Assembly: GCA_910577295.1 (NCBI GenBank)
Contig: CAJTLS010000015.1
Span: forward strand, 823-64,822
From: an uncultured Eubacterium sp.
GTDB lineage: Bacteria > Bacillota > Clostridia > Lachnospirales > Lachnospiraceae
Length of the DNA stretch: 64,000 bases
Direction of reading: 5' to 3'
Part shown: positions 3,029 through 62,712 of the stretch, one piece after another
Layout: each line of letters begins with the position of its first letter
Position numbering within the stretch: position 1 is the first letter of the stretch
The notes under the pieces: model-generated
Database searches by the model: none
What the model was told of the DNA's origin: nothing
What the model saw: the letters and a program-made list of their open reading frames with translations, nothing else
Translations under genes and position numbers: made by a program

Positions 3029-3057
3029 TTGAGAATGATTGTGTTTCTTCCTATAAT
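3029..3057 (+). promoter_or_regulatory. Sigma-A type promoter upstream of the recombinase
   Basis: TTGAGA (3029-3034), a 17-bp spacer, then TATAAT (3052-3057). Confidence 0.5.
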
Positions 3058-3064
3058 AAAGATG

Positions 3065-3084
3065 ATTACTGGCTAGCCAGTAAT
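3065..3084. promoter_or_regulatory. Perfect 20-bp palindrome (candidate operator or 5' RNA hairpin)
   Basis: ATTACTGGCTAGCCAGTAAT is its own reverse complement. It starts about 8 nt after the TATAAT box. Confidence 0.45.
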
Positions 3085-3144
3085 GCACCTTGACAATTTT
3101 ATAGTGTATCCCGTAGAAATATAAGATTACGGGAGGAATAGCAA

Positions 3145-11809: not shown

Positions 11810-12535
11810 GTGATAAAGATGCTTTCGGTAGCAGTGTGTGATGACGAAATGTTAGTTTGTTGTAATTTGGCAAAGGACATCAGAGAGATTTTGGGAGAGG
11901 CAGGTATTCCCTTTATTGTGCGCCAGTTTTCAAGCGGCAGGGACTTGATAAATGCTATAGAGAATTTTGATATTATTTTTCTGGACATCATGATGTGTGG
12001 GATGGATGGTATGGAAACGGCACAGTTTTTGAGGGATAAGTCGTTTGACAAAATACTTGTTTTTATATCGGCAAGCAGAGATTATGTTTTCGAAGCATAT
12101 GATGTGGAGGCATTTCAATATTTGGTAAAACCGGTCGGTTATTCCAAATTACAGAGAGTTTTGCATAAGGCGGTAAAAAAGCTGGAAAACCAATCGCAGG
12201 ATTTTATCATTATCCGTCAGGACAGGACAAGGAAAAAGCTGTTATTGAGAGAACTATATTATTTTGAAATTAGGGGTAGAATTATTTCCGCACATAGCGC
12301 GGAAGGTATCTTTGACTATTATGAGCAGATGCGAACTTTGGAAGAAGAACTGATTGGGAAAGGTTTTTTTAGGTGCCACAAGAGTTTTCTTATAAACTTA
12401 AAATATGTAGACAGCTATAACAGGCAGGAAATTTTCCTTGACACCGGAGAAAAGATACCGATAGCAAAAAGAAGATATGAGGCCTTTTGTCAGGAAATTC
12501 TGGAATATATGAAGAAAAGCGGGGACTGTATATGA
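11810..12535 (+). CDS. LytTR family response regulator (REC plus LytTR DNA-binding domain)
   Basis: VAVCDDE...FLDIMMCGMDG receiver motifs and a C-terminal FFRCHKSFLINLKYV LytTR motif. Confidence 0.85.
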   Translation: MIKMLSVAVCDDEMLVCCNLAKDIREILGEAGIPFIVRQFSSGRDLINAIENFDIIFLDIMMCGMDGMETAQFLRDKSFDKILVFISASRDYVFEAYDVEAFQYLVKPVGYSKLQRVLHKAVKKLENQSQDFIIIRQDRTRKKLLLRELYYFEIRGRIISAHSAEGIFDYYEQMRTLEEELIGKGFFRCHKSFLINLKYVDSYNRQEIFLDTGEKIPIAKRRYEAFCQEILEYMKKSGDCI

Positions 12536-13881
12536 GAGGAGATTTAATCGTATTCCTGTTTTTCTATATGGGATACATATTATCGCTATGTAAGTTTTGC
12601 GAAAAATATTTGAATCGCTTTCAAATGAATAAAAAGATTTTTATTATTCTTTTGCTTGTAATGGAAATAGGAGTTAATTTTGATGGGGGCGCTGGCGCGC
12701 CTTATATTTTGCGGGCAATGATAAGCCACATATTATTTGTCAGTTTATTTTTTATTGCCTTTTCTGATTATGTAATGAAAAAAGTCTTTGTGGCAATGAT
12801 TGTAATTGCCACAAAGACTTTTGTGTGGAACTTCGGGTGCTCCCTTTTTTCCTGCATTGCGTTGATTTGTAGCGATTTATTTGCGGGTAGACAGGCAGCG
12901 TACATGGATTTGTGGCTGGACGTTATAATTGGAGCGGTCGCTTATTTTCCGGTTATTCTAGTACAAAACTGTTTGCGGAAAAGACTGGATTCCGTATTGG
13001 AATCTAAAATAAGAAGTTGGTATCTTATGACGTCTGCCTTTCTTATAGGAATTGTTGCTGTTGTAGATATTGTGAATTGGGGAGCAAGTAATGGGATTAT
13101 GGTAGTATCAAACGCCGGTGGGACAGCGCAAGGAGATGTTTATTATAATCAGATTTTTAGCCACATTTCCATCTGTCTTTTGACGGTTCTGGCAGCTTGT
13201 ATGGCAGGTGGTTTTGTATTTTTTATGAATAAGGTTTATGTCGAGCAGCGGCAGAAAGAGCAGTATAACGCACAAATTGGGTTCTGGCAAATGCTCAACG
13301 AACAACATATGCAGATGGAACGGTTACGGCATGATATGAAAAATCACGTGCTTGCTTTGTACGGCTTATGGGAAAAGAAAGAATTTGATAAGGTGGGAAA
13401 TTATTTGCAAAAGATGATGGAAAAAGGAAATATTGGTTGTGAGGATGAGGTGACAGGTAATCGAGCGGTAGATGCTTTATTGTACAATAAAAGAAAAAAG
13501 GCGGAGGAGCTTTCCGTCCGCTGGATGGCAGATATACAGATTCCTGAAAAATGTATGATTGATGAATTTGACTTATGTGTACTCTTCGGGAATCTTCTTG
13601 ACAATGCGATAAAAGCCTGTGCGGAAATGGCAGATGAGAAATATCGTTTTGTGGAAATTCAGTCGCAGCAGGTAAAGAGATGTCTGCTTCTTGTTATGAA
13701 AAACGGGGCGGCTTTGAAAAATACAAAGGAGATAAGGCAGGGAATCGGGTTTTTCAATGTCAGTGAAACAATAAGAAAATATGATGGCACTGTCAGCATA
13801 AAAGTAGAAAATCAGGTGTTTGAAATTTCTGTTCTTATTCCCATGAATGACAACGGATATAACATGAAAAAGACCGTTTAA
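12532..13881 (+). CDS. AgrC-like (HPK10) multi-pass membrane sensor histidine kinase
   Basis: ATGA overlap with the regulator stop. Multiple N-terminal TM segments, H-box RHDMKNH, and N-box FGNLLDNAIKA. Confidence 0.8.
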   Translation: MRGDLIVFLFFYMGYILSLCKFCEKYLNRFQMNKKIFIILLLVMEIGVNFDGGAGAPYILRAMISHILFVSLFFIAFSDYVMKKVFVAMIVIATKTFVWNFGCSLFSCIALICSDLFAGRQAAYMDLWLDVIIGAVAYFPVILVQNCLRKRLDSVLESKIRSWYLMTSAFLIGIVAVVDIVNWGASNGIMVVSNAGGTAQGDVYYNQIFSHISICLLTVLAACMAGGFVFFMNKVYVEQRQKEQYNAQIGFWQMLNEQHMQMERLRHDMKNHVLALYGLWEKKEFDKVGNYLQKMMEKGNIGCEDEVTGNRAVDALLYNKRKKAEELSVRWMADIQIPEKCMIDEFDLCVLFGNLLDNAIKACAEMADEKYRFVEIQSQQVKRCLLLVMKNGAALKNTKEIRQGIGFFNVSETIRKYDGTVSIKVENQVFEISVLIPMNDNGYNMKKTV

Positions 13882-22644: not shown

Positions 22645-22681
22645 AAGCGAAACCGTTATAACTGTCTTATCGGTTTCGCTT
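22645..22681 (-). terminator. Terminator of the DtxR-family regulator gene
   Basis: AAGCGAAACCG / CGGTTTCGCTT stem overlapping the stop codon, with a T-run on the minus strand. Confidence 0.6.
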
Positions 22682-23054
22682 ATTTTCTTTTTTTCCATTC
22701 TCCCTTCAGTGCGAGGAAACTTTCTTCACTAATAATGTGCTCCATCTTGCAGGCGTCTTCCTCTGCAAGTTTATTTGATACGCCCAGAGAGATAAGATAT
22801 TGTGTCAGTACGTGATGTCGTTCATATACTTTTTCTGCAATCGCCTTGCCAGTTTCCGTTAAATAGATATAACCGGCGCCAGTTACGGTTATGTGTCCCT
22901 TTTCGCGCAGATTTTTCATGGCGACACTGACGCTTGATTTTTTAAAGTCCATCTCCGTGGCGATGTCGACAGCACGTACGACGGGTAGGGAATGGCTTAA
23001 AAGTAAAATTGTCTCTAAATAATCTTCTTCCGATTCGTTGTATTTCTTTTTCAC
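22680..23054 (-). CDS. DtxR/MntR family metal-dependent transcriptional repressor
   Basis: ESEEDYLETILLL...VRAVDIATEMDFKKSSVSVAMKNLREKGHI...YERHHVLTQYL matches the DtxR N-terminal HTH and dimerisation pattern. GTG start at 23054 is preferred over the longer ORF. Confidence 0.8.
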   Translation of the reverse strand: MKKKYNESEEDYLETILLLSHSLPVVRAVDIATEMDFKKSSVSVAMKNLREKGHITVTGAGYIYLTETGKAIAEKVYERHHVLTQYLISLGVSNKLAEEDACKMEHIISEESFLALKGEWKKRK

Positions 23055-23211
23055 AACCGGTATCCCCTTTCCGTTTCTTGCGGTGTGAGTCTTGCAATAA
23101 TTCTTACAAAAGTATAGCACGATTCGCATACAGACGCAAGAAATCAAATGTTCTTTCTGCCATCTTCTTATTATGGATAAAAAGCGTATGGCAATTTCCA
23201 GAGAAAGGGTG

Positions 23212-33135: not shown

Positions 33136-35181
33136 GTGAGAGATACGATGCCAAAACAGGGAAGCCGGATGTTTGTTTATAATGCGGAAGAGAAAGCATT
33201 TGCTACCGCTTCACAGACGGATTGTCTTGTTATTGCGCCTGAAGATATGGATTGTTTTAACCGAATGCTGGAGGAAGCGGCGTCATTGAAACAGCCTGCG
33301 GCAAATTATGCAACGCTGCGGGCGCAAACGGAAGATGGCGGCTTTGCTAACTACTATGTAGGCGTGATTTGCGCGGCTCCCGGCAGCGACATCATTATTA
33401 CATTGACGGAAATTTCCGGCGTCTGTTTGAATTCGCAGAAGATAGATTCGCTTACCGGCCTTTTGAATCGCAATGGTTTGTCGGCGTGGGTTGATGAGCA
33501 TGAAGAAATTTTTACGGACATTGAAGATGAGAAATATATGGTCGTCTATTTTGATGTACAACGTTTTAAAGTTGTGAATGAAATGTATGGATTAGCCGAG
33601 GGCGACCGCTTACTGAAATATATCGGAGAGGTGGTTGCCGAAGCGGCAGGGGAAGATGGCGTTGGCTGTCACCTTGATTCCGACCGATTCGTAATTGTTG
33701 TCAAACGTCCTCCGGATAAGAGGGATTTATTTGTAGAGACGCTGTTAGATGAGATATTGGATTTTGATTTGCCGTTTGAAGTCAGTTGTAATGCGGGTAT
33801 TTATGTGACGACTAAAAATTTCCACTCGGCAGATACGCTTGTAGACCGCGCAATTATCGCGCAGTCTCTCGTGAAAGGAAGCTACACGAAGCGTTTTAAT
33901 TATTATACGGAAGAGCTGCGGAAGAATCTGCTTACCGAGCAGGAGATTATCGGCATGATGAGAGCCGGATTGCGGGACGAGCAGTTTGCCATTTATTATC
34001 AGCCGCAGTACGACCATGCCACCGGAATGCTCGTAGGGGCGGAAGCGCTTGTCCGCTGGCAGCATCCAGAAAAGGGCCTGATTTCTCCGGGACTTTTTAT
34101 TCCGGTATTTGAGAAAAACGGTTTTATTACCCAGCTTGATTTATATGTGTTTGAGAAAGTCTGCCAGTTTTTGCGTTTTTGTCTGGACGAGGGAATGGTC
34201 ATTGTGCCGATTTCCACAAACCTGACAAGACATGACTTTTTCTATCCGAATTTTATTGATACGTTGGAGGGAATCCGCAAAAAATATGATATTCCTCCGG
34301 AGTTTATCCGCTTGGAAATAACAGAATCCGTAGCGCTTGGCAACAGCCAGTTTATCAACGAGGCGATGGAGCGTCTGCACAGCTATGGCTATGTGGTAGA
34401 AATGGATGATTTTGGCAGCGGCTATTCTTCCCTGAACATTTTAAAAGATATTGATTTTGATATTATAAAGCTTGATATGCGCTTTCTTGAGAATGGGCAG
34501 GATGAGACTAACAGGGGCGGAACTATTTTAAGCTCCGTTGTAAGGATGGTGAACTGGCTTGGTGTTCCGGTAATCGCCGAGGGAGTGGAGACAGTCAGTC
34601 AGGCCAATTTCCTCAAAAGTATCGGCTGCAATTATATTCAGGGATTTTTATATTCCAAGCCGTTACCGGAAGACGAATACAAGCAGCATATCAGCATGAC
34701 GAACGTTGGGGTATCGATTCCGCAGAAGAAATTGTTAGATACACTGGACGCCGGCAATTTCTTTGCCAACGATTCGTTAGAGGAACTGATTTTTAATAAT
34801 TTTGTCGGTGGCGCCGCTATTTTTGACTACAGGGATGGCAAGCTCGAAATCGTGCGCGTCAATGAAAGTTATCTGGCTGAACTCGGTCTGGAACTTTCGG
34901 AGAAAGACGTTATGAGCCAAAGTCTGCTGGATGGGTTTGACGACGAGGGCAGAGAGAGCTATCTGGAAATGCTCGAGCGTGCGATAGAGACGGGAGCGGA
35001 ACAGGAATGTGAGACATGGCGGACGCTTACTTCTGCGGATGGCCGGGAAGAGCGGTTGTGTGTGCGCAGTAATGTCATCATGGTTGGGAAAAGTAAGGAT
35101 GCCTACCTGTTCTATGCAAGGATACGGAATATAACGTCGGAAATTGATGGTATTGCTGTTTTGCCGGATTTGAAAATGTAA
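33136..35181 (+). CDS. Degenerate-GGDEF plus EAL domain protein (probable c-di-GMP phosphodiesterase)
   Basis: LTGLLNRNG starts a GGDEF fold, but the signature position reads LDSDRF. The EAL domain is intact: EALVRW, EITES, DDFGSGYSSL, EGVET. Confidence 0.85.
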   Translation: MRDTMPKQGSRMFVYNAEEKAFATASQTDCLVIAPEDMDCFNRMLEEAASLKQPAANYATLRAQTEDGGFANYYVGVICAAPGSDIIITLTEISGVCLNSQKIDSLTGLLNRNGLSAWVDEHEEIFTDIEDEKYMVVYFDVQRFKVVNEMYGLAEGDRLLKYIGEVVAEAAGEDGVGCHLDSDRFVIVVKRPPDKRDLFVETLLDEILDFDLPFEVSCNAGIYVTTKNFHSADTLVDRAIIAQSLVKGSYTKRFNYYTEELRKNLLTEQEIIGMMRAGLRDEQFAIYYQPQYDHATGMLVGAEALVRWQHPEKGLISPGLFIPVFEKNGFITQLDLYVFEKVCQFLRFCLDEGMVIVPISTNLTRHDFFYPNFIDTLEGIRKKYDIPPEFIRLEITESVALGNSQFINEAMERLHSYGYVVEMDDFGSGYSSLNILKDIDFDIIKLDMRFLENGQDETNRGGTILSSVVRMVNWLGVPVIAEGVETVSQANFLKSIGCNYIQGFLYSKPLPEDEYKQHISMTNVGVSIPQKKLLDTLDAGNFFANDSLEELIFNNFVGGAAIFDYRDGKLEIVRVNESYLAELGLELSEKDVMSQSLLDGFDDEGRESYLEMLERAIETGAEQECETWRTLTSADGREERLCVRSNVIMVGKSKDAYLFYARIRNITSEIDGIAVLPDLKM

Positions 35182-35198
35182 ATAAAGGAAATGCTTTT

Positions 35199-35225
35199 GG
35201 GGATGCTTTGGCATCCTCTTTTTTC
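35199..35225 (+). terminator. Rho-independent terminator of the GGDEF/EAL gene
   Basis: GGGGATGC-TTTG-GCATCCTC followed by TTTTTT. Confidence 0.7.
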
Positions 35226-35269
35226 TTTATAGACTTCGGGCGTCAAAAGCCCCTTATCTCTTAATGTAT

Positions 35270-35432
35270 TGGCAATTGCACAAAAAACAATATCTTCGCA
35301 GCAGGATGCACGAACCATTTCACTGAGCCTCAAACGTGGAAATCGTGTTCAGCAAAGGCTTCCACGATTTCCTGAGTCTCAGCTCCATCGTGCATAATGC
35401 TGCTCACCTTATTGTTTTTTGTGCAATTGCCA
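35270..35432. repeat. 163-bp element bounded by perfect 23-bp inverted repeats, with imperfectly palindromic inner arms
   Basis: TGGCAATTGCACAAAAAACAATA (35270-35292) is the exact reverse complement of 35410-35432. Inner stem GGAAATCGTG (35338-35347) pairs with CACGATTTCC (35363-35372). Confidence 0.85.
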
Positions 35433-35536
35433 GTTCCCTTAATAATAAAGGACTTTTGAAACCTGAATATTTATAGAAAATTCAAATTACTCCATTTTTC
35501 AATTAAAAACAAGAATATTTTTCGAAAAAACAACTT

Positions 35537-35569
35537 TCTGTCGCAAAAAAGTATGTGTCTGTCGCAAAA
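35537..35569 (+). promoter_or_regulatory. 12-nt direct repeat with 21-bp phasing (LytTR-site-like architecture)
   Basis: TCTGTCGCAAAA occurs at 35537-35548 and 35558-35569, about 90 nt upstream of the ATG at 35657. Confidence 0.35.
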
Positions 35570-35656
35570 TCCCCATTTTTATTTCAAAATATGTTATTTT
35601 TTTGAAAGCAGTTTCATAGTAGCAGAATCAAATACACAAAGAAATGAGGGATACTT

Positions 35657-38600
35657 ATGAAAAAAACAGTTATCAGTGGGATTTTGGCAGTTTCTGTAGC
35701 CGCTTCTATATGTGTTACAGGTTCTTTTTACGGAAGTAATGAAAATATCAGTTTTGCTTCCTCGGAACAGATTCCGGCGTCAATCGTAAACACAGGGGAG
35801 CTCACTGCAAAGAGAACGGAGTTTGTCAAGCAGTTTTCCATGAGCGATGGCAGTTACACTGCAGTCACTTATTCCATGCCGGTTCATTATAAAAAATCAA
35901 AAGGCGGCAATTGGAAAGAGATTGATACAACCCTTGTCAAATCCGGCAAAAAGAATTACAAGACAAAAGCTACTGACCTTTCCATTCGGGTATCTAAAAA
36001 AGCTAATAAAAAATCGATAGTATCCATGAAACGGGGAAAGAGCCGTCTGTCACTTGCCCTCAAAGGCAAGAAAGTGCGGGCAGCCAAAGCAAAAGTCAGC
36101 AATCCGAAGAAATCCGTGCCGGCGGATGTTTTGAATCAGAATAAAGTCACCTATAAAAAAGTACTGAAAAATACGAATGTCTCCTATGATATTTTTCCGG
36201 AAAAAGTGCAGGAAATCGTCTCTGTAAATAAAAAACAGAAAAGAAAATCGTATTCCTTTCAAACCGGTACGGCATTGAAAGTAAAAGTTAAAGGTAAAAA
36301 AGTTTATTTTAAGAGTAAAAAGGGAAAGACAAAATTTACCCGCATGGGCACGAAAATAACCGATGCCAACGGAGTAACGACATCAAAAGTAAAGCTTTCC
36401 TACAACAAAAAGAAAAAGATATTAAAAGTAACGCCGGACAAAAAATGGTGGAACAGCAAAAAGAGAAAGTTTCCGTTGGAAATCCGCACAACCTATCTGA
36501 CTGACAAGCACCGTCGGGATGTGAAAGTAGGCGCTGCCTATGCCGGTTCGCCAAACAGTAACTACGGGTACGATAAGTCGTTGTTACTGCAGGCTAACAA
36601 ATGTGTGGCATTTACCAAAATGTCCACGCTGGCAGAATTAAAACAGCCAAACGTTCAGATACTGGACGCCTCACTGAATATTAAAAACGAAAAGACGATG
36701 AAACTCGGGGCAGGAAAGACATTTGACATTGGAGTACATAAGGTGAAACAGAACTGGAGCGTCAACGCGCTCACTTACAATAACCGGCCGGCCTATGAAG
36801 CTGCTGCTTCTGCCACAGTGGGGCTCCAGAAAGCGGGAAACTACCAGTGTGACGTGACCGGCATGGTAAAAGACTGGTATGCCGGAGAAGCCAGCTACGG
36901 CGTGGCGCTGGTGGCAGACAACGCCAACCGCGCCTATCAGGCAAAGATTGACCGCAATCCGTATTTTAGCGTACATTATGAAATCGTCGGCTTTGAGGGG
37001 GCCGTGGAATTAAAAGAGAACCAGCCGCTTACCCGCTCCGTTTTGCAGGCAGGGCAGGAAAACTATTATTACTTTGACGCCAAATCGGGCATTGCCTATG
37101 ATTTGTACACTACATCTGCGTTAGATACACAGGGAACGCTATATGATAGTGACAAAAAGCGTGTAGGTTTTGATGATAACAGTGGTCTGGGAAATAATTT
37201 CTCTTTCGTAAGGAGCTATGATGGCAGACGTTATTTGAAAGTTAATACAAAAGGAACAGCTACCGGAGAATATACCCTTACATTGAAAAAGCGGTTTGAT
37301 ATAGCGGAACCGACAGGTAAGATTGGACAGGATAGTTACATCATTAGCTGGAATCCGATTGAACATGCGAAACAATATGTTGTTACAATTTATGATACAA
37401 ATGGTAAAGTGGGCGAAGCGCTTACCGCTGATACTTCTTATGAGTATGTATATACTCCGGAAACGGTCGGAAAGACACTTGCTTTTACGGTGACACCGGA
37501 GGAAAGCGAGCATTTAATGGGAGAACCTTCACGCAAAATCTATAATAGAAACAATGCATCGGAGTGGAATTATGACACTCCGATGTCAGAGGGGAAAATC
37601 AACTTTGCTAGTGCAGTGTGTAAAGATAAAGTATATATTTTAGGTGGTGAAAATAGGGAAAATGGTATGGTTTGCAAAGATTTGGAAGTGTTTGATACAC
37701 AAAAGCAGACATGGAAAAAGGTTAGCGGGTATCCGGAACATATTGATGGTATCTGTAACGCGGCAATGGTAACGCTGGCTGACAAATTATATGTTATTGG
37801 TGGACAGACAAATACCGGAAGTACAGCTAAGACAATAAAGGAAGTTTATTGTTATGAGCCGGACAGCAACCGATGGGAAAAATTGGCAGATTTACCGGAG
37901 GGAAGAACGGGGGTGCCTGTGACCGTATGCGATGGTAAGATTTATGTTTTTGCCAAAGCAGGTACTACGGAGCAGGTAGATATTTATAACCCGTCTGAGA
38001 ACAAGTGGTCGTCAACGGCAAAAGCAGATACAAGTGTCAATTTGCAGGCGCAGACAATTGATGGCAAGATTTTTGTGTTGCGTGAGAAAGCTTCTGCTGA
38101 TGGTACGCTTCCTGCCAAAGTATATTGGGAGGAATATCTGCCGGAAAGCGGGGAATACGATAATGCAGGTTCAGAGCTGGCATTGACAGACGCAGACCGC
38201 TATCAATCAGGAACGGTAATCAACAGTAAAATATATATGGTCAATAATAATAGAACCAATCAGGTGATTTGTTATGATATTTATCTGGACACTTGGAATA
38301 AAGTTCCAGTTCTGAATTTGCAGAAAGAGTTTTCCCAAATACAGTCCGTGGGCAGCACACTGTATAATATAGGCGGTTATATGCAGGGATTTGGAATATT
38401 GGATGTATTGGAAGTCTATCCTGTAAAAAATTTGCAGATTACAAAACCGATGGATGTAAAACAGGGTGAATCTTATGAATTACAAGTCAATGCGGGGAAG
38501 TGCGAAGACAATACAGACTATCTTGTAACGGTACGGATTGACACAAAGATGCTGGCTTTTAGAAGAACATCTTCCTTTATGCAGAAGGAGGAAATGAAAA

Positions 38601-38773
38601 AGGGAAAAGATGGGGTTCAGTTAATGAGTTGTACGCCGGAAAAGGGTGTAATGGTATTAAAATTGCACAGCAAAATGGAAGCCGGCGTTACTTTTGAGGC
38701 ATATCAGTCTATTCCGGTAATGGGATTACAGGATGGAACAACGATAGCTACGATGGAAGTTGAGAAAAAATAA
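35657..38773 (+). CDS. Secreted DNRLRE-type (CBM96-like) domain plus Kelch-repeat protein
   Basis: Signal peptide. KQNWSVNALTYNNRP...CDVTGMVKDWYAGEASYGVALVADNAN is the DNRLRE-domain pattern. Repeated KVYILGG/KLYVIGG/KIYVF Kelch blades. K-rich N-terminal region. Confidence 0.7.
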   Translation: MKKTVISGILAVSVAASICVTGSFYGSNENISFASSEQIPASIVNTGELTAKRTEFVKQFSMSDGSYTAVTYSMPVHYKKSKGGNWKEIDTTLVKSGKKNYKTKATDLSIRVSKKANKKSIVSMKRGKSRLSLALKGKKVRAAKAKVSNPKKSVPADVLNQNKVTYKKVLKNTNVSYDIFPEKVQEIVSVNKKQKRKSYSFQTGTALKVKVKGKKVYFKSKKGKTKFTRMGTKITDANGVTTSKVKLSYNKKKKILKVTPDKKWWNSKKRKFPLEIRTTYLTDKHRRDVKVGAAYAGSPNSNYGYDKSLLLQANKCVAFTKMSTLAELKQPNVQILDASLNIKNEKTMKLGAGKTFDIGVHKVKQNWSVNALTYNNRPAYEAAASATVGLQKAGNYQCDVTGMVKDWYAGEASYGVALVADNANRAYQAKIDRNPYFSVHYEIVGFEGAVELKENQPLTRSVLQAGQENYYYFDAKSGIAYDLYTTSALDTQGTLYDSDKKRVGFDDNSGLGNNFSFVRSYDGRRYLKVNTKGTATGEYTLTLKKRFDIAEPTGKIGQDSYIISWNPIEHAKQYVVTIYDTNGKVGEALTADTSYEYVYTPETVGKTLAFTVTPEESEHLMGEPSRKIYNRNNASEWNYDTPMSEGKINFASAVCKDKVYILGGENRENGMVCKDLEVFDTQKQTWKKVSGYPEHIDGICNAAMVTLADKLYVIGGQTNTGSTAKTIKEVYCYEPDSNRWEKLADLPEGRTGVPVTVCDGKIYVFAKAGTTEQVDIYNPSENKWSSTAKADTSVNLQAQTIDGKIFVLREKASADGTLPAKVYWEEYLPESGEYDNAGSELALTDADRYQSGTVINSKIYMVNNNRTNQVICYDIYLDTWNKVPVLNLQKEFSQIQSVGSTLYNIGGYMQGFGILDVLEVYPVKNLQITKPMDVKQGESYELQVNAGKCEDNTDYLVTVRIDTKMLAFRRTSSFMQKEEMKKGKDGVQLMSCTPEKGVMVLKLHSKMEAGVTFEAYQSIPVMGLQDGTTIATMEVEKK

Positions 38774-38805: not shown

Positions 38806-39471
38806 ATGAAGAAACTAAGTATAAATTTTTTGACCCGAAAAAGATTATTTGTTATAGCAGTGATTATGTTACTAATCACTGCGGGAGTGTTCTTATGTAT
38901 TGTTTTTATGCAGAGAGCCGAGAGGAATTCAGCGCCAAAACAAAAAGCGGCATGGGAGCAGTTAAGTCCGGATGAGCAGAAGATTGCGGGGATTTATGCG
39001 CAATTGTATGATGTGCCGGAAGAAAAGGTTGCGAAACTAAAACTTGATATGAAAGACTGGAACAGCGTAAACAGCAGACTGGATACAGAATATTTTACGA
39101 TAAGCGAAACGGAAAAGTATCAGATGTCAGAGCAGGGATATTCTCTGGAAGATTTATACGAGGCAGAAACGCTGGCCAGAAAGACAGGAAAAAAGGCATC
39201 GGTGCTGGCAAAGGAAAAGGGGAAAGCAGCCGAGGGGAAAAAATGGTCTGAAATTTTGCCGGATAACCGAAAGGATAGTTTAGAGGAAAAACTGGGGTTG
39301 ACGAAAGCGCAGATAAAAATTCTGAAAAGGAAGAATTATAATCGGGATGAAAGAATTGATATTGCCTTACTTTGTTTTAACAGACAGGAAGCCTTTGAAA
39401 GCATTATGAAAAAGATAGAATCGGGACGAAGTATCAAAGTACTAAAGGAGGAGACAGCTTATGAGAAATAA
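38806..39471 (+). CDS. Single-pass membrane protein, hypothetical (RHS operon)
   Basis: N-terminal TM segment LFVIAVIMLLITAGVFLCIVF. The 3' end overlaps the RHS start by 11 nt. Confidence 0.55.
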   Translation: MKKLSINFLTRKRLFVIAVIMLLITAGVFLCIVFMQRAERNSAPKQKAAWEQLSPDEQKIAGIYAQLYDVPEEKVAKLKLDMKDWNSVNSRLDTEYFTISETEKYQMSEQGYSLEDLYEAETLARKTGKKASVLAKEKGKAAEGKKWSEILPDNRKDSLEEKLGLTKAQIKILKRKNYNRDERIDIALLCFNRQEAFESIMKKIESGRSIKVLKEETAYEK

Positions 39472-42400
39472 ATTATTAAAAGCTATGCTGGCGGTTCTGG
39501 GATTATTTGTCGGAATTTTAATAAATACAGGCAACTGCTATGCGGTAGATAATCAATATACGTCTGCTAAGGATGCCGTGTATGCAACTACATATAAAGA
39601 TATCTTTTATAATAAGACAGCAGGTTCTCCTTTAGAATATGAAGCAGAAAACGGGGTAGATAAAGCTACAGGACATCTGACACTGCAAAGAACAGATTTG
39701 GATTTACTTGGAACCGGTGGAATGGATTTTGCGCTGACCCGCTATTATGACAGCAATGAAGCAAACATCGGTCAGCCGTCGGTACAGCATGTCAAAAAAT
39801 TAGATGTAGACAATATGGAAATCAGTTTTCAGGGGGAAGATGGGAAAAAGCACACCTTTGTTGTATCGGTAGATATTTTTAATAATCATTCTGCGGCGCT
39901 CAAAGATATGTTTATTGACTATAAAGCAGGAGGCGATGTCAGAGAGGATACCGAGACAGATACACAAAAAACTCAGGTTATTGATAACCGTTCTTATAAT
40001 GTCTATGGAATCAGCAGTGGATGGTCATTTGATTTCCCTTGGATTGAAACGATGAGCATTAAAGAGGGAGCGGAGAGCAAGTGGTCTGCGAAGCCGATTT
40101 ATCTTCATTGGGGAAGCAAAGGTGCCATGGCAATTTCTACCAGTGAAAATAGTGGCAACAAAACTTATCGTATAACCGGATTAGACAATTATGGGTATTA
40201 TGACGTAAAATTGGAGGATTTTAATAAGACAGTAGATGGTGTGAAGTGTCGTTATTTACTTCGGGATAAGACCGGACTTCGCACATATTTTAATGCCGAC
40301 GGAGTAATTGTACTGCAAAGGGATGCCCATAATAATGCTATCCATTATTCTTATCGCGATAAAATATATTTTGATAAAATTATTGATTCCGTGGGCAGGG
40401 AGATTTGTTTTCACTATGGCGCGGAGAAAAACGGACAGCGTTTTTTGCAGCAAGTTACGGTGCAGGGAGAGAACGTGGACGGGGGAGTGTCCAAAAAGAC
40501 AATAAGCTACTCCCTTTCCGAAACTTCTTATAAACCAAAGAATGGCAAGAAAATATATGGAAGCAAATTGAATTGTGTTACGGTAGATGGAAGCAAAGAA
40601 GAATATACTTACCGGACGGTAGAAACATTTGTCAACACTTCCGGTTGGAGAATTGCGGCTCACCGTGCCGATACGAATCAGGCGTATTTGCTTAAGAGTG
40701 TTACCTGTGACGGCACGATAACAAACTATGAATATCGGGCGGGAACGATACGGGGAACAAAAGACGGTGTGGAAGGACAAAAAAGAGATGTTGCCACACA
40801 GTTTTATTATGTAACCCGTGAATATAAGCAGGACGCCAAAACAAATAAAAAGGCGGAAGGAATTAAGTATGACTATTTCCAGAAGCAGAAAGACAGGGAT
40901 AAGCTTGTATCTTATGCGGATGGTTTTGATGAAATTGACACACAGCAGTATGGAGAAGACGGGCTCCGTAATGTAACGGTTATCAGCAGCTATAACCCGA
41001 AAAAGCACAAAGATAATGGACGTTATTCGGATTATGTGTATAAAAAATCTTCGTTGGATTTTAGTACGCTGCATTTGAGCAGTAAGCCGAAAAAGAATGT
41101 CAGCCTGTATATTTATAATACGAAGAAAATGCTGACGGCGGAAATTGAAGATGGAAGCAGTAAGAGCGAAACCCTTTACAGCTATGACAAGGATGGGAAG
41201 GGGTCTCTTGTCGTACAGCAGACAGACAAATTTTATGGAAAGAACAGAAGTAAGAAACCAATTACGGATAAGCAGGGATTTACTTACGATACTTATCGCA
41301 ATCTTCTTACAAGGAAAAGTCCGAAAGCATATAAAGCGAAGTATGCAGGAAAGGAGCATTTGTTTACTGCTCATTACGCCTATTATCAAACCTCACAGGG
41401 ATATCCGGCAGAAGATAAACCGTTTTGTTTGTGTACTCTTATCAAAGACGAAGAATATCTGAATGGCAGCGATAAAGTGAAGTTAGTCAGTACAATTGCG
41501 GATAATGGCTTGGATTACAAAACGATATCGGAGGAGATAAAAGAGGGGAGCAGGGATTACCGTACAATATCAAAAACCGATTTCTCCTATGATACAAAAG
41601 GAAATGAGACAAAGGGGATTGTATATCCTTATTTTGACACGCAGGGATTGAAAGAGGTAATTGAAAATAATTATACCTATAATGCACAGGGACAGCAGAC
41701 GAAAAAGACAGTTACTTTGACATCCGCCAAAAATCCGGAGCAAAACCGCACTTATATGGAGGAAGAAGCCGTTTATGATTCTTTTGGAAATATTGTAAGT
41801 GAAACGAATCAGGATGACTATACTACAAAATATCAGTATGATGAAGAAACAGGAGAAACGAAACACAGTGTAGAGGGTGTTGGAACAGAATATGAATATT
41901 CACAAGATAAGATGATTTCCGGAGACGGTTTAAAGACAATGTCCGTAGACCAGTACAATCGGTGCATGGTGGAATTTTTGGATGCTTTTGGAAATACCGT
42001 TGTAGAAAAGGATGAGAAATCCGGCACATGGACGGAAAGTACTTATGATTATGGGGAGGAAACGCTGTCTTCTGATGAGGAAGAAGAGGGCAGCAGCCAG
42101 TTAGTAGAAGAAAGAGTATATAGTTTTGAGCCAGAAGGCGACAACTATATTAATCATGAGGATGGAACCAAAGCGCCAAATTATGATATCGGTGGAAAAG
42201 GGCAGAAAGTATTAAGTGGCAGCCGCTATATTTATGATGATTATGGAGAGGAGATTGTAAGCGCTTCCTTTTCAGGCGGTGCAATGGACGCGGCTCACTG
42301 TTCTGCATGGACAGTAACGAAAGAGACAGAGGATGTCACGGAGAATCAGATTGTTACCCGCACTTATATAAAGCAATTAAATCCCCAAAAGTATCAGCAG

Positions 42401-45400
42401 GAGATTGACAGGAACAATTATTATAATCAGTTTGATGGCAGTGTTCTTAGCGAAACAGTAGAAGAGACCGTGACAGATGAAGAAGGGAATGTTGTCTCTG
42501 AAAAGACTACTTATATCTGTGGAGAGGAAAAGTCGGAAACGGTCACTACCTATACTTGTGATGAGGCAGGGCAGGTTTCTTCTGAATATAGTAAGATACG
42601 GAAGTATGAAAACGGAACATGGCTTCCGGCAAAAGAAACACAGAGCAATTACCAATATGATTATCAGGGGAATGTTATACAGACAGAACTGCGCCAAAAG
42701 GAAGAAGGACAGGCTGAGTGGGCAACCCAGACTACCCGTGCGGAATTTGATGAACAGGGAAATCAGACAGCAGAATATAGTCCGCGTGGAGTAAAGGAAG
42801 GATATGCTTCTAAATATGAGTATGATATTCTCGGCAGAATGATTCGCGAAGAGATTCCATTGGAGAAAAAAGATGGTAAAATCGAATATCAGACAAAAAA
42901 GACAGAGTATGATAATTCGGACAATATTGTGGCGACGGAGGAACAGCAGACAGATACGAAATCCATCCGCACCGAATTTTCTTATGATAAACGTGGAAAT
43001 CTTATTTTAGTAAAGAACTGCTTGGAAAATGACACGGCACAATATACCCAGTATGTATATGACGCAGAGGGAAACAAAATCCGCCAGATTACCGGATTGA
43101 CCAGCCCGCTTGCCATATCGCTTGCGGAAGGAACGGGCGAAAATCCCTATAAGTATGCAGGCCATCAATATTCTGTCAACATCAGCGGTAAAAAGAAGTC
43201 TGATATTTACAGTGAATCAAAGTATGAGTATAATAAAAGAAATGAGCTGACTTCTTTTATTGATTCAGAAGGAAGAAAAGAATCTTATACTTATGATGAA
43301 TATGGAAACCTCACAGAAACAAAGGATAAAAACGGCAATACCATAACCGGAAAATTTGACTACCAAAACCGGTTGACAGAATCTGTTGCCAAAGAAAAGG
43401 AAACCGGAAAGAAAACGGTACATACATATCAATATGATAAATATGGCGAGTTGTCAAAGCAGGATAATACTTCTTTTGCATATGACAATGTTTCCGGTCA
43501 GGTCACAAAGGAGACAACTACCGCAGGCAAAGGAAGCAAAATTGAAAAATCGTATGCTTATGACAGTGACGATAACAGGACTTCTTTCTCCGTCAGTGTG
43601 GACGGTAAAACAGAGTTAGATTATCGCTATGAGTATGACGCTTTTTCCCGTCTCTCCAAAGTAAAGCAGGCAGAGCACGGCAACACACGACAAATAGCGG
43701 CTTATACTTATGATGAAGATGGCAATCTTTCCAGTCGGGAGGCCACGGAAGCAGGACTGAACAGTCAGTATACTTTTGATTATGCTAACCGTTTGACGAA
43801 AATGGATAACAAGACGGCCGATAAGAGCATTTCCTCTTATCAGTCCACTTACTTGAAAAACGGGCAGAAAGCGTCAGAAGAATCGCAAATATCAACAGAA
43901 ACAAAGGAGAGTGATAAGAAAAAGGCAGCCTATACTTATGATTTGTTAGGGCGGCTGACAAAAGAAACAAATTCCGGTCAGGAAAGTGTATCCTATACCT
44001 ATGATGCCCATAATAACCGTAAGGAAATGAAAGTGGGCAATCTTACGACGGCTTACCGGTATAATAAAAATGAAGAACTGCTTCGCTCCGATACATTGAA
44101 TACGGACACGAAACAGGATTCTGTCACACTGTATAAGAATGATTATAATGGGAATCAGTTGGCGAAAGTAACGAGACGGAATGTGCAGGAAGACGGCACC
44201 TATTTTGATTTGGATGTGTCGCTCGGAGATAACCGCATAAATGACAATGTAGTTTATCATTATAATGCGCTGAATCAGTTGACGGAGACGTTGACGCGGG
44301 ATAAGAAAGTTACCTACGAATATGACGCAGAGGGCTTACGGACTGCTAAGACTGTCAATGGTAAAAAGACCATCTATATATGGGATGGTGACCAACTGGC
44401 GTTGGAGGTAACAGAATCTGGCAAAGTGCTTCGCCGCTATGTCAGGGGCAGCAGCCTGATATACAGCGACGAGGGGGCCGGAACGAAAAAGCAGTATTAT
44501 GTTATGAACCCTCATGGCGATGTGGTGCAGTTACTCGATGAAAGTGGTAATGTGACTAAGTCCTATGAGTATGATTCCTTTGGCAATGAAGTAAAACCGG
44601 ATAAAAAGGATGATAATCCGTTCCGCTATGCCGGAGAATACTATGATAAGGAAACGGCTTCCATTTATCTTCGGGCGAGGTATTATCAGCCGCAGCTGGG
44701 GAGATTCCAGACGAGGGACACTTATACGGGTGAGGATGATGACCCGCTGACGCTGCATTTGTATACTTATTGTGGAAATGACGCGGTGAATCGTGTTGAT
44801 TCGAGTGGGCATTTCTTTGAAACATTATTGGATATCGCAAGCATTGGCTATAGTATGTACTCATTGATTACTGAACCATCGTGGGAAAACGCAGCTAATT
44901 TAGTTTGGGATGTAGCTGCTACAGTTGTTCCGGGAGTGCCGGGCTCCTATGTAGGAAAGGGCATCAAAGCAGTAAGCAAAGTAACAAAAAGTTCTAAAGC
45001 GGTACAAAAAGGTGTCAAGTATGCGAGTAAGGCTAAGAAAGCCATATCGGGTGCAAAGTCTGTAAAGAAAGTCAAAACTGCTGTTTCAAGCGCTAAAACC
45101 GTAGGGAAAAATCTTCTGAATAAGTCATCCCGTGCATTGAAAAAGCGTGTGAAGCTGACAGGGGAAAAGTTAGGAACACGTACTAAAAATGCGCTTAATA
45201 AGGCAGAAATTAATGTAAAAAAATTAACTAGTAAAAGAAAAGGTAGAAAAATAAAAAATGGAGGTAAAACAGGAGAGCGTGCATTAATAAAAAAATATGG
45301 GGGAGAATCTCAAAAGTATTTTAAAACTTCTTTAGGAGGCCGGTATATTGACCAGTTTGCCAGAGGAGTTGCACATGAGTCGAAAGTAGGTTATACCTCA

Positions 45401-45577
45401 TTAACAAAGAGTATTAGGCTTCAAATATTAAAAGATATTGAGTTAATTAATAATAGAGTGATAAAAAGTTCTCATTGGCATTTTTATAAAAGTCCGAAGA
45501 CAGGAAAAATTGGGGCATCAAAACCTTTGCGTGATTTTTTGGATAAGCATGGAATAAAGTATTCATACGGCGAGTGA
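39461..45577 (+). CDS. RHS/YD-repeat polymorphic toxin with signal peptide and a C-terminal PD-(D/E)xK nuclease-like toxin domain
   Basis: Dozens of YD repeats (YTYDAHNNR, YEYDAEGLRTAK...). RHS core end is PFRYAGEYYDKETASIYLRARYYQPQLGRFQTRD...NRVDSSGH. The C-terminal region reads GKTGERAL...RYIDQFARGVAHESKVGY. Confidence 0.9.
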   Translation: MRNKLLKAMLAVLGLFVGILINTGNCYAVDNQYTSAKDAVYATTYKDIFYNKTAGSPLEYEAENGVDKATGHLTLQRTDLDLLGTGGMDFALTRYYDSNEANIGQPSVQHVKKLDVDNMEISFQGEDGKKHTFVVSVDIFNNHSAALKDMFIDYKAGGDVREDTETDTQKTQVIDNRSYNVYGISSGWSFDFPWIETMSIKEGAESKWSAKPIYLHWGSKGAMAISTSENSGNKTYRITGLDNYGYYDVKLEDFNKTVDGVKCRYLLRDKTGLRTYFNADGVIVLQRDAHNNAIHYSYRDKIYFDKIIDSVGREICFHYGAEKNGQRFLQQVTVQGENVDGGVSKKTISYSLSETSYKPKNGKKIYGSKLNCVTVDGSKEEYTYRTVETFVNTSGWRIAAHRADTNQAYLLKSVTCDGTITNYEYRAGTIRGTKDGVEGQKRDVATQFYYVTREYKQDAKTNKKAEGIKYDYFQKQKDRDKLVSYADGFDEIDTQQYGEDGLRNVTVISSYNPKKHKDNGRYSDYVYKKSSLDFSTLHLSSKPKKNVSLYIYNTKKMLTAEIEDGSSKSETLYSYDKDGKGSLVVQQTDKFYGKNRSKKPITDKQGFTYDTYRNLLTRKSPKAYKAKYAGKEHLFTAHYAYYQTSQGYPAEDKPFCLCTLIKDEEYLNGSDKVKLVSTIADNGLDYKTISEEIKEGSRDYRTISKTDFSYDTKGNETKGIVYPYFDTQGLKEVIENNYTYNAQGQQTKKTVTLTSAKNPEQNRTYMEEEAVYDSFGNIVSETNQDDYTTKYQYDEETGETKHSVEGVGTEYEYSQDKMISGDGLKTMSVDQYNRCMVEFLDAFGNTVVEKDEKSGTWTESTYDYGEETLSSDEEEEGSSQLVEERVYSFEPEGDNYINHEDGTKAPNYDIGGKGQKVLSGSRYIYDDYGEEIVSASFSGGAMDAAHCSAWTVTKETEDVTENQIVTRTYIKQLNPQKYQQEIDRNNYYNQFDGSVLSETVEETVTDEEGNVVSEKTTYICGEEKSETVTTYTCDEAGQVSSEYSKIRKYENGTWLPAKETQSNYQYDYQGNVIQTELRQKEEGQAEWATQTTRAEFDEQGNQTAEYSPRGVKEGYASKYEYDILGRMIREEIPLEKKDGKIEYQTKKTEYDNSDNIVATEEQQTDTKSIRTEFSYDKRGNLILVKNCLENDTAQYTQYVYDAEGNKIRQITGLTSPLAISLAEGTGENPYKYAGHQYSVNISGKKKSDIYSESKYEYNKRNELTSFIDSEGRKESYTYDEYGNLTETKDKNGNTITGKFDYQNRLTESVAKEKETGKKTVHTYQYDKYGELSKQDNTSFAYDNVSGQVTKETTTAGKGSKIEKSYAYDSDDNRTSFSVSVDGKTELDYRYEYDAFSRLSKVKQAEHGNTRQIAAYTYDEDGNLSSREATEAGLNSQYTFDYANRLTKMDNKTADKSISSYQSTYLKNGQKASEESQISTETKESDKKKAAYTYDLLGRLTKETNSGQESVSYTYDAHNNRKEMKVGNLTTAYRYNKNEELLRSDTLNTDTKQDSVTLYKNDYNGNQLAKVTRRNVQEDGTYFDLDVSLGDNRINDNVVYHYNALNQLTETLTRDKKVTYEYDAEGLRTAKTVNGKKTIYIWDGDQLALEVTESGKVLRRYVRGSSLIYSDEGAGTKKQYYVMNPHGDVVQLLDESGNVTKSYEYDSFGNEVKPDKKDDNPFRYAGEYYDKETASIYLRARYYQPQLGRFQTRDTYTGEDDDPLTLHLYTYCGNDAVNRVDSSGHFFETLLDIASIGYSMYSLITEPSWENAANLVWDVAATVVPGVPGSYVGKGIKAVSKVTKSSKAVQKGVKYASKAKKAISGAKSVKKVKTAVSSAKTVGKNLLNKSSRALKKRVKLTGEKLGTRTKNALNKAEINVKKLTSKRKGRKIKNGGKTGERALIKKYGGESQKYFKTSLGGRYIDQFARGVAHESKVGYTSLTKSIRLQILKDIELINNRVIKSSHWHFYKSPKTGKIGASKPLRDFLDKHGIKYSYGE

Positions 45578-47425: not shown

Positions 47426-48022
47426 ATGCAAGAAATAAAAGATTTTAATGAGTATTATAATAATAACCCGCTTGCCCAAAGGGAGGAAGAGAGATTTAAT
47501 TTACTGGATGATGAGAAAAAAGAAAAGTTAAAAATTCTTGAAGAACTAGACTTAAAAGAGTATCAGTTAAAGGTAATAAAGCGAAAACGTGTGAAACCTC
47601 AAAAGGGGGATTTATTTGTAGTGTCACCAAAAGAAAATATGTATTTTTGGGGTGTTATAATAAATTCTGATGTTAAGGTTTGTGAAGAAGATGGGTTTAT
47701 GGTAGTTTTTATATTAAAGGACAGAGCAGAATCTCCCGCTGATACAAGTATTCCCAATAGTGTCACAAATTTATTAATAGAACCTGCTATTGTGGGAAAG
47801 TGGTATTGGAATAAGGGTTATTTTTATAATGTTGGAATAAGTATAGAAATTCCTGACAATGTGGATTATGGCTTTTATTCGGTTGGTAGAAGAAAATATG
47901 TAGATGAATATGGAAATACAATGAAAAAAGAACCGGAGTTAGTAGGGATATATGGGGCATGTACCAATCAGGGCATTGCATATGAAATTAATTATGAATT
48001 AATAGCGTCCGGATTAATTTGA
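47426..48022 (+). CDS. Hypothetical protein, immunity-protein-like (orphan)
   Basis: 198-aa cytoplasmic-looking ORF with an SD, located in the array downstream of the RHS toxin. Assignment is by context. Confidence 0.4.
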   Translation: MQEIKDFNEYYNNNPLAQREEERFNLLDDEKKEKLKILEELDLKEYQLKVIKRKRVKPQKGDLFVVSPKENMYFWGVIINSDVKVCEEDGFMVVFILKDRAESPADTSIPNSVTNLLIEPAIVGKWYWNKGYFYNVGISIEIPDNVDYGFYSVGRRKYVDEYGNTMKKEPELVGIYGACTNQGIAYEINYELIASGLI

Positions 48023-60574: not shown

Positions 60575-61303
60575 GTGGCAGATACGATAAAAATTGCAGT
60601 GTGTGATGATGAAAAAAATATAAGGTCTTATCTTGTTTCGCTAATCAAAAAGCAGGACAGAGAATGTAGTATTACGGAATATGCCTCTGCCGATGAGTAC
60701 CTGTCAGATGGCAGAGAGTATGATTTGGTATTTCTGGATATAGAGATGGAAAGCTCCCATACGGACATGGATGGCATGGGATTGGCAGGATATATCCGAA
60801 ACATGGAGGTTCGGAAACAGCCCATCATCATTTTTGTAACAGGATATGAAAAGTATGTTTATGACGCATTTGACGTCGGGGCGTTCCAGTATTTGGTAAA
60901 GCCTGTAGACGAACAAAAATTTGCCGAAGTGTTTGAGCGGGCAGTGAGAATAGTATCGGAGGCGGAACGGCGGAAGAAAAAACTTGTGCTCCGTTATGGC
61001 AGCGAGAGAAAGGTGATACCACTGAGTGACATTTATTATATGGAAAGCCGGAATCATACTATCGTTTTGTGCCTGAAAAGTGGAACTATGGAATACGCTG
61101 CAAAAATGGGTGATTTGGAGGAAGAACTGGCGGGGCAGTTTTACCGCATCCATCGAGGATACCTAATCAATCTTTTCCATGTGGAGGGATACAACAGGAC
61201 GGAAGTAAGGATGGCGAACGGAGATAAGTTGCTGCTTTCGAGATATAAATATGATGGGTTTGTGCAGGCGTACATGAATTACATTTCGGAGGAAAGTCTA
61301 TGA
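60575..61303 (+). CDS. LytTR family response regulator (second copy)
   Basis: IAVCDDE...FLDIEM receiver motifs and a C-terminal FYRIHRGYLINLFHV LytTR motif. Confidence 0.85.
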   Translation: MADTIKIAVCDDEKNIRSYLVSLIKKQDRECSITEYASADEYLSDGREYDLVFLDIEMESSHTDMDGMGLAGYIRNMEVRKQPIIIFVTGYEKYVYDAFDVGAFQYLVKPVDEQKFAEVFERAVRIVSEAERRKKKLVLRYGSERKVIPLSDIYYMESRNHTIVLCLKSGTMEYAAKMGDLEEELAGQFYRIHRGYLINLFHVEGYNRTEVRMANGDKLLLSRYKYDGFVQAYMNYISEESL

Positions 61304-62712
61304 GCCAGTCAACATTTCAAACAATAAGCAATATATTGGAAATTTGGAAAAATGTCATACAGTCCATCCTGTTCCTTGTTTTGTGGGCGGCGCTCTTTCA
61401 TAAAAAGAAAGAGAGAAAGGACGTTATTGCAGCAATCCTGTTTATTTTGGCAAATACAGGTATAGGATTTCTGCCATGTGCCTCATGGGTCAGGTATGCT
61501 GTTTCTGCTGCTGTCATAATAGGATATGGAGCGCTATGCTGTAAAAAGCAGATTAGTAAAGTGGTCTTTGCCGTGCCTGCCTTTTATAATCTTCATTGCC
61601 TGAGTTATTTAATTGCCAATAGCATTCATGTGGAGACGGTGAGGAGATTTGTCAAAGAGGTTGATACTTCGCAGGATGGCTATGTACAGCAGATGTATTA
61701 TGGTGCAACGGTAGGAATGTTTTTATTAGTCCTTTTTTATTCGGCATTATTAACAGCTATGGTGCTCCTTATTTGCAGATTAGTGAAAGGAATCGGAGTA
61801 ATGACATGGCAGGATGTGATATTGCTTTCCGTTCTCAATTTTGTAGGCAGTATGATAACAAATATTGTTGTAGAACTGTATGTAGTGCAAATTGGAGAAG
61901 GCGCCTTTGTTCTGTTTGATGAAAAGCGGGAACTATTGTGGAAATTGCCCGCGATAGCAGTTTTCATTTTTGCGGGGGAAGCTGCGCTCATCTATTTCTG
62001 GCAGAGATACCGCGTTCTGCTTGCCGCCAGACAGAAACATTTTGTAGAGGAGCAGCAGGTCAGGGCCATGAAGAGACGTCTGGAAGAGGCGGAAAATTTT
62101 TATGGCAGTATCCGCAAAGTACGGCATGAGATGAAGAACCATATGGCGAACATTAAAGGACTGGCAGGAGCCGGACAGTACGAGGAAATAGAGGACTATG
62201 TTCAGAAAATGGATGTAACCATGCAAAAATTAGAATATAAGTATGTGACGGGAAATGCGGTTACCGATGTTATTATCAATGATAAATGCCGCAGGGCAGA
62301 GAAATTAGGAATCCGGTTTGCTGCAGACTTCCGGTATGATGGGAAAATTCCTGTATTCGACTTGGGAATCATACTCAACAATCTTCTGGATAATGCCATA
62401 GAGGCTTGTGAGAAGCTAGAATCGGGAGAAAAATTTATACGCCTTACCCTGAAACGCAAGAAGCAGTTTTTATTATTGGAAGTAGAAAACAATTTTGACG
62501 GAACTGTTCCCATACAGACGGATGAAAACCTGATACCAATCACAACGAAGCCGAGCGCCCTGCCGGAAATTGTTACGGAGCATGGAATTGGGCTTGAAAA
62601 TGTGTGTGATGTGGCGGAGAGGTATTTTGGCGGTGTAAACATAAAAGTAAAAGGGAATGTGTTTCATGTGACAGTAATGCTGCAGCAGGGAGAGGGGGAA
62701 GAAATTGAGTAA
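61300..62712 (+). CDS. AgrC-like (HPK10) membrane sensor histidine kinase (second copy)
   Basis: ATGA overlap with the regulator. Multiple TM segments, H-box VRHEMKNH, N-box LNNLLDNAIEA and G-box EHGIGLENV. Confidence 0.8.
   Translation: MSQSTFQTISNILEIWKNVIQSILFLVLWAALFHKKKERKDVIAAILFILANTGIGFLPCASWVRYAVSAAVIIGYGALCCKKQISKVVFAVPAFYNLHCLSYLIANSIHVETVRRFVKEVDTSQDGYVQQMYYGATVGMFLLVLFYSALLTAMVLLICRLVKGIGVMTWQDVILLSVLNFVGSMITNIVVELYVVQIGEGAFVLFDEKRELLWKLPAIAVFIFAGEAALIYFWQRYRVLLAARQKHFVEEQQVRAMKRRLEEAENFYGSIRKVRHEMKNHMANIKGLAGAGQYEEIEDYVQKMDVTMQKLEYKYVTGNAVTDVIINDKCRRAEKLGIRFAADFRYDGKIPVFDLGIILNNLLDNAIEACEKLESGEKFIRLTLKRKKQFLLLEVENNFDGTVPIQTDENLIPITTKPSALPEIVTEHGIGLENVCDVAERYFGGVNIKVKGNVFHVTVMLQQGEGEEIE

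Follow-up and report, generated by a model that had tools for sequence, protein, structure and literature searches.

Does the pair of perfect inverted repeats that lies upstream of an RHS toxin operon in a mouse-gut Eubacterium form an invertible switch, or is it a structure of another kind, such as a MITE-like hairpin? Both readings had been offered in an initial annotation of the locus. We examined them in a 64,000-nt stretch of DNA (hereafter the window) and in other assemblies of the same species.

The inverted repeat and the palindrome around it

The left arm of the repeat (35270-35292, forward strand, TGGCAATTGCACAAAAAACAATA) is the exact reverse complement of the right arm (35410-35432, reverse strand), and the two are separated by a spacer of 117 nt. 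With up to three mismatches allowed, the 23-mer matched these two sites only in the 64-kb window and had no match in 100 shuffles, none being expected by chance; the perfect 23-bp inverted repeat around 117 bp described in the initial annotation is thus borne out. The 23-mer itself contains the palindromic GCAATTGC. In the L002 assembly the left arm carries a C-to-A variant, and the arms are thus not invariant.

The 23-mers had been taken for the outermost part of the structure, but complementarity continues outward from them as far as 35235 and 35467, giving 58-nt arms (35235-35292 and 35410-35467) that are 78% complementary and placing the 23-mers inside. As delimited by arm identity, RNA and DNA folds and the alignment of its halves, the complete imperfect palindrome, or foldback element, spans about 236 bp (35234-35469, no strand assigned) and has its centre near 35351. 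When the left half was aligned with the reverse complement of the right half, 86 of 127 columns were identical (about 68%), and the blocks GCAGCA..ATGCACGA, CTGAG.CTCA and GGAAATCGTG lined up with two 5-nt indels between. The 117-nt interior (35293-35409, no strand assigned) is indeed the degenerate palindrome with indels that had been recognized earlier, as its blocks appear in inverted order in this half-to-half alignment. The coding content of the palindrome is confined to short stop-to-stop frames. Its predicted RNA folds reach -104 kcal/mol (z -12) on one strand and -114 kcal/mol (z -13) on the other, and its DNA fold reaches -61 kcal/mol (z -11), so that a hairpin is strongly favoured.

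Amid arms of about 68% identity, a perfect run of 22-23 bases is non-random (p ~0.007). The initial annotation had attributed this perfection to selection or gene conversion acting on the termini of the element; the non-randomness stands, but the 23 bp are internal rather than terminal and template-switch correction would explain them equally well. Directly outside the palindrome lies an exact 8-bp direct repeat, TTTATAGA, with copies on the forward strand at 35226-35233 (left) and 35470-35477 (right) that form a candidate target-site duplication. This repeat was noticed post hoc, and its p values (~0.008 by flank shuffling and ~0.002 against equally spaced 16-mer pairs across the window) are indicative only.

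The palindrome is situated between the terminator of a GGDEF/EAL gene and the promoter region of the Kelch/RHS operon. The GGDEF/EAL gene, its left neighbour by ORF annotation (33136-35181, forward strand), has a predicted intrinsic terminator on the same strand, 5' of the palindrome, at 35199-35218 plus a T-run. The right neighbour, also by ORF annotation, is the CBM96/Kelch (DNRLRE-type) gene (35657-38773, forward strand), which is the first of the RHS operon and is followed by a 221-aa gene and then a 2038-aa RHS gene. The terminator and the operon ATG at 35657 are both located where the initial annotation had put them. An Rfam scan of 34900-35900 returned nothing overlapping 35234-35469 even at E <= 10; the three sub-threshold matches at this cutoff were chance matches, all outside the palindrome.

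Downstream of 35530, the probable location of the Kelch/RHS promoter region, TGTCGCAAAA occurs as two direct repeats at 35539-35548 and 35560-35569, about 90-120 nt 5' of the Kelch ATG, and their spacing of 21 nt matches LytTR-type regulator boxes. The motif is similar to a Spo0A box (TGTCGAA) as well, and two pairs of a LytTR response regulator and a GHKL histidine kinase are encoded in the window (11810-13881 and 60575-62712).

Long and short alleles of the locus

Contigs fetched by way of the GGDEF/EAL and Kelch proteins and the members of their 90% clusters yielded the locus in about 40 public assemblies, all belonging to the same mouse-gut Eubacterium/Lachnospiraceae species. Among 185,579 GTDB species genomes the 23-mer occurred in one, the mouse-gut MAG 'uncultured Eubacterium sp. 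MGBC165605' (L001), at the orthologous locus, where the right arm only was present. The long allele, with an intergenic region of 475 or 483 nt, was found in 14 full-length copies including the window, and five more long-type contigs stop inside or just short of the palindrome. In the short allele, found in 15 distinct contigs or assemblies, the intergenic region measures 320 or 328 nt and lacks exactly 155 bp, equivalent to window positions 35258-35412 (no strand assigned), which hold the left arm and the interior. The short allele is now present in roughly half of the strains sampled.

At the short-allele junction AAAAGCCCCTTAT is joined directly to TGTTTTTTGTGC. From the sequence and the allele alignment, the missing segment is bounded by the 6-bp direct repeat CCTTAT, with copies on the forward strand at 35252-35257 and 35407-35412, the latter overlapping the first 3 nt of the right arm; the register of the segment is ambiguous within this repeat. 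The short allele retains the right arm, both outer stems and both TTTATAGA copies, and its DNA fold (-8.7 kcal/mol, z -1.3) contains no significant hairpin. We rejected the long allele as an assembly artefact, as its halves have diverged and it was reproduced by SPAdes, MEGAHIT and Logan contigs. Creation of the short allele by an assembler was also rejected, since its junction k-mers are new sequence that is underivable from long-allele reads. Short-allele contigs encode full-length Kelch (1038 aa) and RHS (~2018 aa) proteins, and judging from this gene intactness the palindrome segment would be unnecessary for keeping the RHS operon intact.

The first 35 nt of the 155-bp segment repeat, in inverted form, a stretch beyond its right end, 23 of 23 core bases being identical, and the rest of the segment completes the symmetry with the outer stems common to both alleles. 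Because a one-step deletion explains this symmetry, whereas a foreign insertion would have to mirror its target, we take the long allele to be ancestral and the short allele to be the probable deletion product. Two candidate outgroups were set aside in assigning this polarity: the Kelch/RHS operons of L031-L035 (60-67% identity) have unalignable upstream regions without the palindrome, and L007 has a GGDEF gene relative (80% identical) but no RHS operon downstream.

The short allele occurs on three haplotypes (L009/L014, L017 and L001/L018-20), and L017, which is short, equals the long L010 at all 23 informative SNPs. When the indel was set against the SNP at 35230, 22 bp from the junction, all four combinations were present and the four-gamete test failed. 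The presence on three haplotypes and this violation with a SNP only 22 bp away point to a recurrent loss of the 155 bp; very short-tract recombination with a crossover inside the 22 bp, or an in-vitro product, would give the same pattern. By haplotype group, L001, L018-20 and L043-51 were fixed for the short allele and L021-26 were uniformly long. It is established that palindromes undergo repeated deletion at hairpin-associated short direct repeats (PMC3315005), and substrates of the same geometry are used to measure the slippage of polymerases in vitro (PMC13465473). Relative to the base of the main stem, the CCTTAT repeats are placed asymmetrically, unlike what the simplest slippage model prefers. 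The intergenic region is almost invariant across the population because the whole locus has very low diversity, with 23 parsimony-informative SNPs in 4 kb in a mosaic arrangement.

Several contigs end or depart from the window in this region. Five short-read contigs end at or near the palindrome (L002 at 35369, L027 at 35351, L028 at 35329, L029 at 35265 and L030 at 35302), one of them exactly at its centre, and assemblies appear to break repeatedly at the hairpin. L006 departs from the window 13 nt past the GGDEF/EAL stop, into a gene beginning MNATEQTHQQDLERLKSLRYMDD (L006 8050-8148), and eight Logan contigs with the Kelch gene (L036-L042 and L052) begin at window position 35541 or 35539, inside the first TGTCGCAAAA repeat. 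These contigs suggest a third allele class, in which about 35195-35540 (terminator, palindrome and AT-rich spacer) has been replaced in some strains by other, possibly repeated, DNA.

Variation was also seen within the operon. In L016 (5522-6157), an A6-to-A7 frameshift in the Kelch gene poly-A tract at about 36230-36236 results in 211-aa and 832-aa products; the 211-aa product (P0255) was recorded from 55 contigs and marks either a pseudogene lineage that is common or a site of slipped-strand variation. The RHS protein varies under the same Kelch protein, from 2038 aa in the window (39461-45577) to 2018 aa (with an Ntox17 toxin domain) or 2022 aa in L043-L052. Such differences in RHS length and domains between strains are typical RHS C-terminal toxin exchange, and immunity-like genes, such as Imm26 at 47426-48022, lie further downstream in the window. 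In L031-L033, where the Kelch protein is that of another species (66% identical), a 306-aa tyrosine recombinase (Phage_integrase) is encoded divergently at 2903-3823 on the reverse strand, 177 bp 5' of the Kelch gene at 4001. L031 and L032 differ in the genes beyond the recombinase and in called RHS length (1304 versus 2041 aa), which hints at a recombinase-linked rearrangement at that locus.

Orientation, promoter signals and competing explanations

If the locus were an inverton, a recombinase would flip 35293-35409 between the 23-bp repeats and so move a CATAAT promoter toward or away from the RHS operon. The perfect 23-bp repeats and 117-bp spacer fit known inverton sizes, in which a pair of inverted repeats encloses tens to hundreds of bp, and an operon follows downstream of the site; conservation is higher in the core than in the remainder, several contigs break inside the region, and the homologous Kelch/RHS operon of another species has a divergent tyrosine recombinase gene upstream. 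The orientation data argue otherwise. The interior had the orientation of the window in all 14 full-length and all four truncated long copies, and in none of the 18 was it inverted; as a comparison of independent assemblies, this count captures majority (consensus) states. Bona fide gut invertons commonly vary in majority orientation between samples, and the constant orientation is for this reason evidence against inversion: at the level that assemblies show, no inversion of the segment is seen. Moreover, the contig breaks miss the repeat boundaries, the interior is itself near-palindromic, and the 23-mers are not discrete recombination sites, as complementarity runs past them. No invertase-type gene was seen in the 64 kb in a scan that covered all but two (22680-23147 and 62765-63274) of the ORFs of at least 150 aa not nested in a larger gene; the sole recombinase found there was a 537-aa large serine recombinase with Resolvase, Recombinase and zinc-ribbon domains (3145-4758), 30 kb from the palindrome. 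A sigma-70 region-4 protein (1233-1727) precedes this gene, and the region is possibly the edge of an integrated element.

The promoter signals gave a similar picture. A consensus promoter scan of the kilobase around the palindrome returned two matches versus 2.2 expected by chance, with no operon-facing promoter within 35293-35409; one promoter-like match, TTGGCA-16-TATCTT (35269-35296), spans the left arm. The CATAAT of the initial annotation does occur at 35393-35398, but in the interior and not in the 23-bp right arm, and it is unpaired with any -35. We found it unsupported as an operon promoter, since the scan finds none and the operon is intact in strains without it. The operon is likewise intact in strains that miss one repeat and the whole interior. 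With no inverted copy among 18, no interior operon-facing promoter and an operon that is intact without the segment, the proposed invertible switch is unsupported by these assemblies and scans, and we regard an inverton as very unlikely. We infer that the palindrome has no regulatory role for the RHS operon. Very improbable, too, is a contingency locus for the RHS toxin operon, in which the 155 bp would be frequently lost and perhaps regained by hairpin-guided precise excision, or in which low-level inversion would be hidden from the consensus; under either version, strains of a gut Firmicute would toggle the layout of the DNA upstream of a contact-dependent toxin operon.

Three further explanations concern the segment, the short allele and the palindrome as a whole. 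The polarity would be reversed if the short allele were ancestral and the 155-bp segment a mobile hairpin element, for example of the IS200/IS605 palindrome-associated type. Elements of this type transpose in single-stranded form, enter 3' of TTAT without duplicating the target and leave by precise excision. The segment has the same boundaries on three haplotypes, it closes with a CCTTAT that also precedes it, which fits left and right cleavage sites of the same sequence, and it has a large hairpin plus a 9-nt 3' tail. We nonetheless consider such an origin unlikely: the left 35 nt mirror the external flank (23 of 23 bases), which is not expected of an incoming element, exact-pattern scans of the conspecific MAG and the 185,579 species genomes gave no other copy of the left arm, and JGI metagenomes gave only three unrelated chance matches, with none in IMG/VR, plasmids or phages. 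In addition, no called ORF matches any reading frame of the element, and the window encodes no HUH/Y1 transposase (TnpA/RAYT). The short allele might also be partly or wholly technical, if a polymerase jumped from CCTTAT to CCTTAT over the hairpin during library amplification and hairpin fragments were under-represented. An artefact would be expected to turn up on every haplotype background, as the short allele apparently does, the contigs that break inside the palindrome imply that it is hard to sequence or assemble, and in-vitro slippage on this type of substrate is documented (PMC13465473). However, the short form is the sole form in 15 assemblies from various assemblers and projects, the haplotype group of L001, L018-20 and L043-51 is fixed short while that of L021-26 is all long, and an assembler cannot make the junction k-mers out of long-allele reads; we give a technical origin a low probability.

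Finally, the palindrome could be a functional cis-element, either an inverted operator pair for a regulator of the RHS operon or a structured RNA, insulator or terminator. The perfect conservation of the 23-mer is non-random, its right copy is retained in both alleles, the intergenic region is nearly invariant in the population and both strands give a very stable RNA fold. This reading is nevertheless doubtful, and we hold it to be improbable, as no Rfam family matches even at E <= 10, the 23-mer is absent from the rest of the window, homologous operons of other species are without such a sequence and a proper terminator already stands upstream. Half of the strains have, moreover, lost one site and the hairpin, and the near-invariance reflects low diversity at the locus (23 informative SNPs in 4 kb).

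Origin of the palindrome and relation to known systems

We searched for further copies of the palindrome and found none within the 64-kb window. Exact-pattern scans of genome and metagenome collections, in which diverged copies may be missed, gave no copy of the left arm elsewhere in the conspecific MAG or in 185,579 species genomes; in JGI metagenomes the 23-mer, with one degenerate position, had three single-arm matches in unrelated coding DNA, which we judged to be chance, and in IMG/VR neither the 23-mer nor the central-hairpin pattern was found. Comparison of the palindrome with plasmids and phages (blastn, distant mode) returned no match, and its six-frame peptides, searched against 5.8 billion proteins or clusters in case further copies had been annotated with spurious ORFs, gave none at E <= 1. 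No parent or related insertion sequence was found, and no empty site (a single TTTATAGA without the palindrome) was present among the long, short and replaced-region alleles. An island att site was also rejected, as the rest of the window contains no repeat of any part of the palindrome.

The palindrome has several attributes of a MITE or foldback element, namely inverted-repeat halves, a length of 236 bp, non-coding sequence and an 8-bp repeat resembling a target-site duplication; dispersed copies or a related IS, and an empty site, were absent from the collections and alleles examined. The MITE-like hairpin of the initial annotation therefore survives in part: TTTATAGA flanks the full palindrome as a target-site duplication would, but the element is single-copy everywhere searched. 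The annotation had looked to further copies as a check, and the dozens of dispersed copies that would have marked a MITE are absent from these collections. Because neither a second copy nor a parent IS was found, the argument for a transposon origin comes from the 8-bp repeat and the foldback shape, and this origin is the weakest part of the overall explanation. Going by its sequence, the palindrome is most likely what remains of the one-off insertion of a small non-autonomous foldback (MITE-like) element.

The locus thus carries a single-copy 236-bp quasi-palindrome in one orientation, with a 155-bp presence/absence polymorphism on several haplotypes. The explanation that we favour, with moderate confidence, is that of an orphan foldback relic with a template-switched core and a recurrent slippage deletion, which is not a switch and has no regulatory role. 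A small non-autonomous foldback (MITE-like) element would have inserted with an 8-bp target duplication of TTTATAGA, and its halves would have diverged to about 68% identity with the exception of the 23-bp core. An intrastrand template switch (quasi-palindrome correction) most probably restored the match between the two core arms, since mutations of this template-switch kind are concentrated at quasi-palindromes (PMC7202029). A less likely source of the perfect match is selection on a binding site. The palindrome can fold into a very stable hairpin or cruciform, and because of this ability it would be genetically unstable. Hairpin-stimulated replication slippage, or microhomology repair, between the CCTTAT repeats would then delete the 155 bp, and do so recurrently.

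Of the known systems, the instability of quasi-palindromes and long palindromes (template switching, hairpin-stimulated deletion, SbcCD) shares with this locus an imperfect inverted repeat with a stable hairpin and one perfect stretch, as well as a deletion at 6-bp direct repeats that destroys the hairpin, here on several haplotypes (PMC7202029, PMC3315005, PMC13465473). Unlike an engineered substrate, the present case is a natural polymorphism in a gut Firmicute, in which the in-vivo event is putative and the direct repeats are asymmetric about the stem base. MITEs and foldback elements of the Correia, RUP and ERIC type are similar in size (about 236 bp here), in being non-coding, in their inverted-repeat halves and 8-bp flanking repeat, and in their intergenic location near a promoter region; our element differs in being single-copy in the collections searched, with no related IS and no empty site. 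Invertons such as fimS, the flgB and cwpV switches of Clostridioides difficile and the Bacteroides PS promoters also have repeats of about 20-30 bp around about 100-300 bp, upstream of an operon for a surface or secreted product (PMC11602134, PMC11892184). In contrast to these, the present locus shows no orientation variants, no internal promoter and no nearby invertase, and its interior is palindromic, with repeats embedded in a longer palindrome. IS200/IS605 palindrome-associated elements and REPINs resemble the segment in being hairpin-rich and non-coding, with seamless presence or absence beside TTAT, but here there is no copy family, no cognate Y1 transposase or RAYT was seen, and the left end of the segment mirrors the flank beyond it.

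The main value of this locus is as a worked negative, in which population data reveal a textbook-looking inverton candidate as the inner part of a longer unstable palindrome. Sites of this kind would be picked up by repeat-based inverton predictors, and the palindrome also marks a spot where short-read assemblies break. The precisely bounded, recurrent loss of 155 bp provides a clean natural case of hairpin-associated deletion in a gut commensal. If the alleles were to alter expression of the RHS operon, which is hypothetical, they would constitute a simple structural polymorphism affecting interbacterial antagonism.
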